Shown: piece by piece, positions 15,007 to 37,981 of the stretch | How the letters are laid out: each line of letters opens with the position of its first letter | Position numbering within the stretch: the first letter of the stretch is position 1 | Assembly: GCA_018816335.1 (NCBI GenBank) | Contig: JAHIVP010000023.1 | Span: 1 to 58,423, forward strand | Direction of reading: 5' to 3' | Source: Nanobdellota archaeon | GTDB lineage: Archaea; Nanobdellota; Nanobdellia; Pacearchaeales; GW2011-AR1 | Length of the DNA: 58,423 nucleotides | Translations under genes and position numbers: made by a program | Notes under the pieces: generated by a model | The model's input: the letters and a program-made list of their open reading frames with translations, nothing else | Database searches by the model: none | Told to the model about the DNA's origin: nothing

Positions 15007-15063
15007 TTTATTTTTTAATTGTTTTAGATAAATTTAAAAGTAGATTTTTTGTTAGTTTAATAT

Positions 15064-15174
15064 GCCCCGTTAGTCTAGAGGCCAAGGATTCTGCCCTTTC
15101 AAGTGAACCTTTTTAAAAGGTTCCCAAAAAGACGAAGAAAGGCAGTGACCCGGGTTCGAATCCCGGACGGGGCA
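15064..15174 (+). tRNA. tRNA-Glu(UUC) with 38-nt intron at 37/38 (15102-15139)
   Basis: GCCCCGT/ACGGGGC; CTGCC-CT-TTC-A|intron|A-GGCAG; BHB CTTT/GAAG. Confidence 0.93.
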
Positions 15175-15207
15175 TGTTTAAATAACTTAAATATAATATA
15201 ATATAAA

Positions 15208-23842: not shown

Positions 23843-24235
23843 ATGGCAGTTCATACTTTTGAAATAACTCCTGAAGAAGCAAGATTTGATGTTCCTTTAG
23901 AAGTTGTTACAGATAGGATTGCCGAATTCTTGAAAACTACGGATTGTGCTACTGTTAAAGCAGTTGCTCTTAATCTAAGATTTCCTTTAGATCATGAAGG
24001 TTATAGAATTGGAGAAGACGGATCACAAGCTGCTTGGGAATGGGTAGATAAAGTTTATGAATTCCCTACTATTGCAGAGGATAGTCGAGAAAATGGAAAA
24101 AGATTAATTGCTACTCCTGTTAGAGCATTAGAAAAACTATTATATGAAAGAGGATATAATATGATTCATGATCGTGGGGATTATCATGATGGAAAAATTT
24201 GGTTGGATATAGGAAAAAGATTTTCTTTTACTTAG
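23843..24235 (+). CDS. Hypothetical protein
   Basis: 130-aa ORF with own TTATAAA box. Confidence 0.65.
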   Translation: MAVHTFEITPEEARFDVPLEVVTDRIAEFLKTTDCATVKAVALNLRFPLDHEGYRIGEDGSQAAWEWVDKVYEFPTIAEDSRENGKRLIATPVRALEKLLYERGYNMIHDRGDYHDGKIWLDIGKRFSFT

Positions 24236-27099: not shown

Positions 27100-28299
27100 T
27101 TATTTATTCTCAACAACCAAATAAACTTCGTCATTAACTCTAACTTTATTTGGAAGTTTGATTCCCACATCTTCTCCCTTTTTTATTTCACTTACAGATT
27201 TTCCATCAATTTCCATTGATATTATTTTTGTTTGGATGAAGGTTTCTTTTCCTATTATTAGTATTTCATCTCCGACTTTTAGTTTGCCTGCATTGAGGTG
27301 TATTCCTGCGACTTTTGGTTTGGGCCAGAATTTGAAAACTTTTCCTATGAATTGTTTTGATTGTGTTTGTTCTCCGTGGTCAGATTTTGATAAGTCATCT
27401 GAAGTTGGAGAGTTTATATAAAATCCTAATGAGAAACCACGGTTGTAAACTTTTTCCAGTTCTTTTAATAATTTGTTTATTTCTGATTTTGTTAGTTTTT
27501 TATCTATTGCTTGTCTGTATGCTGATGTTACTGCAAAAACATATTCTGGATCTCTGTTTCTTCCTTCTATTTTGAAACTTGAAACAAAAGGTTTTAGTTT
27601 ATCTATAAATGGGAGTGTGCATAAGTCTTTAGCAGACATGACTTTTGAGTTTTCAAGTTTTAGTTTGTTTCCGTCTTTGTCTGTTATTGTGTATGATTCT
27701 CTGCATGGTTGTTGGCACATTCCTCTGTTTGCTGATTTACAATGAAGAAATTGAGAAGTGAAACAACGTCCTGAATATGAAACACATAAAGCTCCGTGAC
27801 AGAATATTTCTATTGGGATGATTTTTGATAATTGTTTCATTTGCTTTATGTTTAGTTCTCGAGCAGGAATTATTCTTTTTGCTCCTAGTTTTTTATAGAA
27901 CTTAGCTGAATCTTGATTGCTTACTGAAGCTTGTGTTGAAATAAAGAAAGGAATTTTGTATTTTTTACATAGCTGGATTACTGAAGGGTCCCAGCAGATT
28001 ATTGCGTCAACTAATGATTTAGCTTTAGGGATTAGTTTTGAGAGTTTAGGAATTTCGTTTGAGTATATGATTGTATTTAGAGTTAAGTAAAGTTTTACGT
28101 TTGAAGAGGAGCAGACTGAATGAACTTTTTTTAATTCTGTTAATGTGAAGTTTTTTGCTGAATCTCTCATTGAGAATTCTTTTAGGCCTAGATATACTGC
28201 ATCACATCCTGCTTTTATGGCGGCGTGGAGGGTTTGAAAGTTTCCTACTGGGGATAATAATTCAGGGGTTGGAATTTTGTGAGTTTTTTTTATTGACAT
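27100..28299 (-). CDS. U32-family protein (TrhP/RlhA-like)
   Basis: ELLSPVG, DAVYLG, STQAS, HGALCVSYSGRC, NRGMCQQPCR, KIEGR. Confidence 0.93.
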   Translation of the reverse strand: MSIKKTHKIPTPELLSPVGNFQTLHAAIKAGCDAVYLGLKEFSMRDSAKNFTLTELKKVHSVCSSSNVKLYLTLNTIIYSNEIPKLSKLIPKAKSLVDAIICWDPSVIQLCKKYKIPFFISTQASVSNQDSAKFYKKLGAKRIIPARELNIKQMKQLSKIIPIEIFCHGALCVSYSGRCFTSQFLHCKSANRGMCQQPCRESYTITDKDGNKLKLENSKVMSAKDLCTLPFIDKLKPFVSSFKIEGRNRDPEYVFAVTSAYRQAIDKKLTKSEINKLLKELEKVYNRGFSLGFYINSPTSDDLSKSDHGEQTQSKQFIGKVFKFWPKPKVAGIHLNAGKLKVGDEILIIGKETFIQTKIISMEIDGKSVSEIKKGEDVGIKLPNKVRVNDEVYLVVENK

Positions 28300-36960: not shown

Positions 36961-37119
36961 TTTTTTTATTTAGTATGTGAATATTTTAGTCACATCCCTT
37001 TAAATATGTTTGGTTGTGATTTATTTAACCCTTTATTTCCACGCCTTTTACACAACTTTTTTGAAGTGGTAAAATTATATTCGAAAGCTTTATATACTAT
37101 TTATGTTCTATTAAATTAT

Positions 37120-37272
37120 CAATTTGGCTAACAGAGCAATTGGTTGAATTCCTTCGGGTGTTTAATCAGCTTCGGATGTTAGTTGATTGTTATATTCAAG
37201 ACTGGCCGACTGGAGAAATAATTATTGGATCTTCGGGTTTTTTAATTATCTTCGGAAGTCGGTTGGTTATTG
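37120..37272 (+). ncRNA. Candidate structured ncRNA: two tandem co-varying stem-loop units with four CUUCGG motifs
   Basis: BRE/TATA CGAAAG-CTTTATATA at 37082-37096, many G-U pairs, U-rich 3' end. Confidence 0.65.
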
Positions 37273-37379
37273 TTTTTCTTTTTGATTTATGTGGAGTTGG
37301 AGATGATGGTATTCTATTTTTGTAAGATAAATTTTTTAATGAGTATAAATTTTTAAAGTTGTATTTTAATTAAAACTTC

Positions 37380-37598
37380 ATGGCAAAATTGATTGTTGGA
37401 TATGATAAAGTTTCAGATTATTATTATTTTGTTATAAAAGGGAATCCTATTTATAGAATCAGTACTGGATTTGAAACTCCTGAAGATTGTGGTGAATTTG
37501 TTAGAGCTTGTAAAATAGAAGAAGCAATTACTGGGGTTGGTTTTGATGATTTTTCTAACGAAGAGATTAGAAGATTTTGGACGGTTGTTAATAGGTAG
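37380..37598 (+). CDS. Hypothetical protein, paralog of 37646
   Basis: IVGYD..GFETPEDCG..EIRRF matches VVGKD..GLESPEECG..DLARF. Confidence 0.65.
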   Translation: MAKLIVGYDKVSDYYYFVIKGNPIYRISTGFETPEDCGEFVRACKIEEAITGVGFDDFSNEEIRRFWTVVNR

Positions 37599-37645
37599 TC
37601 TTTTAGTATAGATTAATTTTTAAAGTGTTATTTTAGTTACAAATT

Positions 37646-37981
37646 ATGGAAATTGTTGTTGGGAAGGATAATGGAAGATATTTTGTTTTAGCTTATATTA
37701 ATCATTATGAGAATAAGAATAGTATTAGAGAGTTAGATGGGATGTTATCTCCTAAAGGTTGTCGTTCTCATGATGAGTTTAGGGATTCATTAACAGTTCA
37801 TGGAGCTAGAGATATTTTTGCTGGGGGTTTAGAAAGTCCTGAAGAGTGTGGTGCTGAAGTTCAACGATTTGTTAGAGAATCAAGACAAAAAATAGAGGAT
37901 ATTGATTTAAATGAATTGACTGAAGTTGATTTAGCTAGATTTATGAATGGATTAATGTCTGATTATCTTGAGGATAGATAA
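37646..37981 (+). CDS. Hypothetical protein, paralog of 37380
   Basis: Shared motifs and similar promoter AATTTTTAAAGT. Confidence 0.65.
   Translation: MEIVVGKDNGRYFVLAYINHYENKNSIRELDGMLSPKGCRSHDEFRDSLTVHGARDIFAGGLESPEECGAEVQRFVRESRQKIEDIDLNELTEVDLARFMNGLMSDYLEDR

Follow-up and report, generated by a model that had tools for sequence, protein, structure and literature searches.

The locus at 37118-37283 of the window (the whole stretch of archaeal DNA analysed, 58,423 nt) is a stand-alone RNA gene, a two-unit member of what is apparently a real and undescribed RNA family. The machinery for making such an RNA is known, but the predicted product is unusual. In the overall explanation that we lean towards, with confidence somewhat above even, promoter-driven units would be cut by EndA and sealed by RtcB into dumbbells of 36-38 nt, which would probably bind protein.

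The genome carrying the locus has a size of 0.9 Mb and a GC content of 31%, and is 82% complete. On the + strand, a BRE-like element, CGAAAGC (37082-37088), whose function is inferred, precedes the TATA box TTTATATA (37089-37096), and the locus is likely transcribed from this promoter of its own. The predicted primary transcript (37118-37283, with an approximate 5′ end placed by TATA spacing) contains two units and ends in a U-tract that is a likely terminator (37273-37283). In unit 1, the P1 5′ strand (37124-37133), the exon-side stem, forms 10 bp with 37177-37186. It is followed by a GRRNAA strand in a junction resembling a bulge-helix-bulge (BHB) (37134-37139), by a predicted excised circle of 36 nt (37140-37175; circular fold -8.8 kcal/mol) with a P2 helix, an apical cUUCGg and a junction cUUCGg, and by the last bulge A with the P1 3′ strand (37176-37186). 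The cuts predicted from the EndA rule are at 37139/37140 and 37175/37176. In unit 2, the P1 5′ strand (37200-37211) forms 12 bp with 37257-37268, and the GRRNAA strand (37212-37217), a predicted circle of 38 nt (37218-37255; circular fold -4.6 kcal/mol) and the last bulge A with the P1 3′ strand (37256-37268) are separated by predicted cuts at 37217/37218 and 37255/37256.

The preliminary description had reported the BRE/TATA, two units and U-tract, and all of them can be read directly in the sequence, with the stems as first described. Its proposal that the fold works on the + strand agrees with the energies: 37116-37285 folds at -49.0 kcal/mol on the + strand and at -18.3 kcal/mol on the reverse strand. 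The fold of 37110-37285 (-49 kcal/mol, z -4.03) was equalled by none of 200 shuffles. Four copies of CTTCGG lie inside 100 nt at the locus; the genome as a whole has 83, both strands counted. Running the suggested Rfam check, we found no Rfam 15 family above its gathering threshold at the locus, and neither ARAGORN nor Rfam called a tRNA there, in line with the earlier view that the RNA is not tRNA, 5S, SRP or RNase P.

Searching the same genome with a descriptor, we found a third unit and no more. It is a single unit on another contig (C19:13430-13496, - strand) with its own BRE/TATA-like box and U-tract, an arginase-family gene on one side and a convergent ORF on the other, and it had no Rfam match. 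A covariance model built from this unit alone detects both units of the window (E about 3e-9). Among the three units, changes on both sides were seen in 12 of 24 pairs, and 94% of the cells pair.

Outside this genome, BLAST with the locus against 60 relatives gave short chance matches only, and a stringent pattern derived from the sequences of units 1 and 3 had no match in 400 other genomes of the order, so covariance models were needed to find the family. They yielded 93 distinct units, nearly all from the window's own order of the DPANN, small archaea that live as symbionts, in loci of one to three tandem units. The genome counts are lower bounds, with 34-64 candidates scored per genome and one member (G126) missed: the final model matched 26 of 149 genomes of the same taxonomic family (21 genuine on inspection), 11/80 and 6/80 genomes in further sets (16 genuine), 3 of 24 genomes of the order's other families, and 1 of 56 genomes of other orders, which had been included as an already-known carrier. 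Across 185,579 species genomes, the pattern had 101 matches, 80 of them run through the model and the remainder judged by descriptor or by eye. True units were present in 39, all labelled as archaea (Pacearchaeota, Woesearchaeota, Nanoarchaeota or 'archaeon').

Several model matches were dropped as chance or as another family: G431, G428, G003, G377, G439, G005, G441 and G146, as well as L138 (21.9 bits, not hand-folded), L213, L288 and L419. After inspection, 59 GC-rich metagenome matches were also dropped. Units in L214 and L347, recognised by eye and missed by the parser, are outside the 93. As a separate observation, L227:1450-1680 and L419:1450-1670, from genomes of two orders, have in common a structured stretch, about 190 nt long and almost identical between them, which looks mobile.

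The homologues bear out the earlier proposal of a stand-alone RNA gene. In an alignment of 60 units that was fitted to the model, and hence leans towards its structure, double changes occurred in 23/23 pairs and 91% of the cells paired, against 35-47% when slid. Covariation was seen for P1, P2 and the W:D pair described below. A TATA-like box starts 28-55 nt before the first junction at 73 of 77 family loci, compared with 53 of 446 control windows. Downstream of the last unit, 63/77 loci have a U-rich stretch, a count without a control. The sense strand folds better than its reverse in 92 of 93 units. The neighbours of the loci vary (Dph-like fragment, PC4-like, IF2, SMC, RNase HII, tRNA, 5S), with the vicinity of Dph-like, PC4-like and IF2 genes recurring across genera. 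Rfam scans of 12 and 20 family loci matched only adjoining tRNA and 5S genes; the 5S gene was beside, not inside, the locus in 2 of the 12.

Each unit has the order P1 - GRRNAA - W - P2 - UUCG - P2′ - D - CUUCGGA - P1′. W pairs with D in all 60 model-aligned units (UG 38, UA 19, AU 3). The same 60 units all have G-C, R-U and R-U pairs and a 3-nt 3′ bulge, although pairing was not demanded of them; R opposite U pairs almost by default, and each informative double change is one event among related genomes. For units added after the first 60, the descriptor demanded the three-pair helix. A-C opposition at the three helix pairs was seen in none of the 93 units, the later of which were selected for pairing, and one unit has a U to C change opposite G. 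The 3′ junction strand is CUUCGGA in 75/93 units. When the junction was left free in a metagenome search, 38 of 98 matches were genuine; all 38 had GRRNAA, 32 had GCUUCGGA, and the 6 variants kept three pairs.

The junctions fall into four classes: 2+3 (36 units), 3+4 (13), canonical 3-4-3 (6) and three pairs with a mismatch (38). A full 4-bp central helix can form in some register in 55/93 units, including both units of the window. All 31 units with a pyrimidine at N have G at D, which makes a second helix register possible. The relaxed BHB junctions of the preliminary description, 3+4 in unit 1 and 2+3 in unit 2, are thus recurring classes and not canonical ones; the canonical geometry with two 3-nt bulges was found in only 6/93 units (8 by rule, of which those in L187 and L106, with U-rich slippage and CUUCGGA kept, were not counted). 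All 60 aligned units have a 3-nt bulge beside the central helix and a disrupted other site, the relaxed BHB arrangement, for which the classes hBH, HBh′ and BHL are defined in PMC5829648.

Five of the canonical units belong to one genus. They have lost D and the UUCG, and pair AAAG or GAAG with CUUU between two 3-nt bulges; four of the five carry a G-C to A-U double change. The sixth comes from another genus and uses the other register, and two near-canonical units with weak outer stems were found in two other families. In two genomes, the inner helix branches into two UUCG hairpins (L337:1500-1588 and L338:180-266), giving predicted circles of 58-59 nt. No C/D or H/ACA boxes were found in the 60-unit alignment, where the loop is conserved and not variable. 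The units lack tRNA acceptor, D and T arms, the predicted circle being a single helix, and their BHB stems enclose no rRNA, only a UUCG hairpin.

From this architecture, the family RNA would most likely be an EndA substrate, and we regard splicing of the units to a circle as reasonably probable. The layout is that of an intron-bearing anticodon arm, with P1 as the stem, GRRN pairing with CUUC, AA^W as a relaxed 5′ site and GG^A as the 3-nt 3′ bulge. EndA cuts after the second base of a bulge, and this rule was used for cut-site prediction; it matches the parses of the genome's own pre-tRNAs. Such cuts would free W-P2-UUCG-P2′-D-CUUCGG. On ligation by RtcB, D would pair with W and C with G, and another cUUCGg cap would arise at the junction. 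With its extra base D, the precursor would be a non-canonical BHB but the product a perfect dumbbell. The joined exons would form a hairpin with a 7-nt GRRNAAA loop.

The predicted excised piece is 32-45 nt long in 90/93 units. The positions of the C...G pair of the junction tetraloop can pair in 92/93 units, with one A-U double change, and this pair requires the central helix to have come apart. Among 49 offsets, the cut of the EndA rule gave the most stable circle in 78/93 units (mean -8.6 kcal/mol, against -7.1 for the next best). The energy bonus for UUCG enters into this comparison, which is not independent of the invariant CUUCGG.

A second family of stand-alone RNAs in these genomes, here called type B, has a TATA-like box, two to four cUUCGg hairpins and a U-tract (L382-L411, L226, L230 and L358; for example, L397:1450-1600). 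If the circles are real, type B would make, as a linear RNA, two capped helices like theirs. It was found in 41 of 200 genomes of the family, against 4 with a reversed-pattern control, and was not found in the window's own genome by the search pattern used. A TATA-like box was present at 25/30 type-B loci, and none of 16 loci tested matched Rfam. Type B often lies in the Dph/PC4/IF2 region where loci of the circle family also occur. The two families were not mutually exclusive: 6 of the 21 carriers among the 149 genomes also hold type B. We found no description of either RNA family in the literature, the search not extending to the supplements of RNA-motif surveys.

The predicted circle junctions resemble the first hairpin of type B. 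The motif YURRC-UUCG-GUYRR, which was written after both families had been seen and is partly fixed by the search pattern, fits 17/21 type-B first hairpins, 27/50 predicted circle junctions and 0/70 apical loops. Junction 14-mers were identical to a type-B first hairpin in 7/50 cases. A profile test, in which 40/60 junctions preferred the first hairpin, was weaker than the motif test. The apical loop of the circle family resembles the last hairpin of type B instead (76/79). As a side observation, a 23S rRNA hairpin tip of relatives, AUC-UUCG-GAU (L103 and L105, near 1540), presumably helix 62, also resembles this apical loop, possibly through mimicry or by chance.

No guide sequence is left free in the ring, whose helix differs between units in both sequence and length. 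Judging from the tandem repeats and the sister family, the important feature seems to be how many UUCG-capped helices there are. These features would fit a stable protein ligand or decoy, with about even chances. Our guess is that the ring would be an endless, nuclease-resistant ligand or decoy with two UUCG-capped helices, and that tandem units would raise its dose. For splicing to a circle and a protein-ligand role taken together, we see the chances as evenly balanced. The broadest form of the proposal, that dedicated genes, single or in tandem arrays, do nothing but feed the tRNA-splicing machinery, that ligation builds a cUUCGg cap and yields endless dumbbells of 40 nt, and that the circles and their linear sister family make up a new class of protein-binding RNA, is tentative, with chances a little short of even.

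The enzymes for such processing are present. The genome encodes RtcB and, on contig C36, an EndA with intact Tyr/His/Lys positions, which we take to be the catalytic triad. This EndA is one catalytic subunit of 186 aa that aligns to the alpha4 enzyme of M. jannaschii and lacks the insertion seen in N. equitans; no second subunit or paralogue was found in the genome at its 82% completeness. In all five other carriers tested, the EndA subunit is similar and also has a single domain. According to PMC6379350, only (alpha-beta)2 and epsilon2 EndA are efficient on relaxed motifs, and A. fulgidus EndA cuts a BHL in full-length pre-tRNA. The family RNAs have no tRNA body. Loop-bearing alpha4 enzymes occur in DPANN, according to PMC5829648, and the loop was not seen in this genome's EndA. 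With an EndA lacking the relaxing loop and RNAs lacking a tRNA body, cutting of the common non-canonical form is therefore not assured.

The genome's own pre-tRNAs also have mostly relaxed splice sites, mainly at the 5′ site. Among 24 parsed intron calls, one of which is probably false, 16 have the full central helix and 21 the first three pairs; the full helix together with an outer helix of at least 2 bp is present in 8/24, and 5 have the same fourth-pair mismatch as the family. In pre-tRNA-Arg(UCG) (C31, about 27676-27763, - strand), the BHB contains the two strands of the family junction in swapped order and is a possible origin of that junction. Several tRNA introns (for example, window 15063-15175) have a common GAACCUUU...AAAGGUUCCCAAAA hairpin, which suggests a spreading intron family.

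Alternatively, the RNA could be a decoy or brake, with EndA binding the relaxed junction and cutting it slowly or at one bulge only, so that the RNA would throttle tRNA maturation in a cell with many intron-bearing tRNA genes. The resemblance of the enzyme to the strict alpha4 type, the mismatched central helix of 38/93 units and the swapped strands of pre-tRNA-Arg(UCG) would all fit, and tandem units would give more binding sites. The C...G pair of 92/93 units, the W:D pair and the likeness of the junction to the type-B hairpin would be left unexplained, and canonical members should be cut outright. We consider this explanation unlikely.

A further explanation, which we rate slightly lower still, is an unspliced three-way junction, in which CUUCGG would form a one-pair tetraloop on P2 to give a nicked protein-binding dumbbell, the BHB look being incidental. 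It accounts equally well for CUUCGG and the W:D pair, fits the CUUCGGA strand of 75 units, and is in keeping with type B, a linear RNA with two UUCG hairpins in the same genomes. It gives no reason for the one-base losses that reach 3-4-3 BHBs in up to four lineages, or for the complementarity of GRR to the 3′ strand that is kept after the loss of UUCG.

Three other readings are far less likely than either the EndA brake or the unspliced three-way junction. One, raised in the preliminary description, is a kink-turn bound by L7Ae. Kink-turns are bound by L7Ae and are defined by tandem G-A pairs and a 3-nt bulge. An L7Ae gene is present in the window, and GA follows P1 and precedes P1′ in 53/93 units. 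The defining G-A pairs and bulge are not conserved in the family, however: tandem GA/GA is missing in 40/93 units, with variants ending in GU, UA, UG, UU or GG, and the bulge would be the 4-nt UUCG. The kink-turn reading is accordingly very improbable.

The preliminary description noted that the RNA lies upstream of two ORFs; a link between the RNA and these ORFs did not hold. The small ORFs at 37380-37598 and 37646-37981 share a stretch, G(F/L)E(T/S)PE(D/E)CG, and a weak similarity (27% identity over 45 aa, pairwise E 6e-5), and had no Pfam match. A TATA-like box lies some 30 nt upstream of the start of each one (37350-37357 and 37617-37624), a spacing that suggests leaderless transcripts. 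A cis-acting leader or antitoxin of these ORFs or of IF2 might be considered, since the RNA lies 113 nt before the 72-aa ORF and three relatives have IF2 71-103 nt downstream on the same strand. The two ORFs are absent from all 45 other family loci, the next gene is convergent at many loci, and the third unit of the genome stands alone, so we give this explanation very little weight. Elsewhere in the genome, a repeated two-hairpin leader precedes similar ORFs (C27 near 24100-24160, - strand; C38 near 15130-15200, + strand); the start of the C27 ORF presumably resembles NYN-domain proteins.

DNA palindromes of a mobile repeat, or terminators, would fit three copies at two loci in one genome but are hardly credible given the better folding of the sense strand (92/93), the TATA-like boxes (73/77 loci), the recurrent position near Dph-like, PC4-like and IF2 genes across genera, and a viral scan in which a 5-bp P1 stem was missing from all 52 pattern matches.

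To our knowledge, EndA substrates comprise tRNA introns, rRNA precursors, a few mRNA introns and one permuted SRP RNA, and almost no small RNAs are known in this lineage. If splicing to a circle is true, the splicing machinery would serve as a routine circular-RNA factory for a gene family whose product is just a tiny circle, and the locus would be a natural circular-RNA expression cassette. The units would offer a natural design for stable RNA rings and a minimal natural substrate for studying the action of an alpha-type DPANN EndA on relaxed sites that lack a tRNA body. Two undescribed structured RNA families would also be opened up in this lineage.

With no SRP motif, tRNA body, rRNA or Rfam match, the family is a member of none of the known systems with which we compared it. 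According to PMC4731332, the permuted SRP RNA of Thermoproteus tenax has its own TATA promoter and a leader and trailer that form a BHB; cleavage by EndA was shown and ligation by RtcB proposed, giving a stable circle in which a hairpin loop is restored. The family is alike in its own TATA promoter, its BHB and a predicted circle whose hairpin loop would be made by ligation, and differs in a predicted circle of only 32-45 nt, the absence of the SRP helix-8 motif and its arrays of one to three units. An SRP RNA was rejected as the identity of the locus, which has no helix-8 CAGG/AGCA loop and no RF01857 or RF00169 match, and a separate SRP-like RNA was found in 3 of 4 other carrier genomes tested. 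Separately, three relatives have SRP-like RNAs (L427-L429:1440-1660) that do not reach the Rfam cut-off and whose helix 8 carries a 6-nt loop. The window's own genome has two SRP54-family genes, but no such RNA was found there.

Archaeal tRNA introns at 37/38 and their circular products, as described in PMC6379350 and as parsed in the genome's own pre-tRNAs, share with the family a stem, a 4-base central helix, a relaxed 5′ site, two bases to the 5′ cut, a 3-nt 3′ bulge and a 7-nt loop after ligation. The family has no tRNA body, it has the purine strand on the exon side where pre-tRNAs have the opposite arrangement, and its intron-like part is what is structurally conserved. In circular 23S rRNA, as described in PMC12918454, a GNRA tetraloop caps the BHB junction, so that a tetraloop arises at the ligation point, as predicted for the family, whose units contain no rRNA. 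An origin in rRNA-processing stems was rejected, as the predicted folds of the 23S flanks in five carrier genomes (L352-L356) had no such junction; any stem that appeared in them was a simple one, and no BHB was evident. In Haloferax, the 5′ UTR of HVO_1309 contains a BHB intron of 46 nt, as reported in PMC7714728: it too is a short EndA substrate that is neither tRNA nor rRNA, and it gives a small circle, as is predicted for the units here. That intron lies in an mRNA leader, whereas the units described here form stand-alone genes conserved across dozens of genomes.
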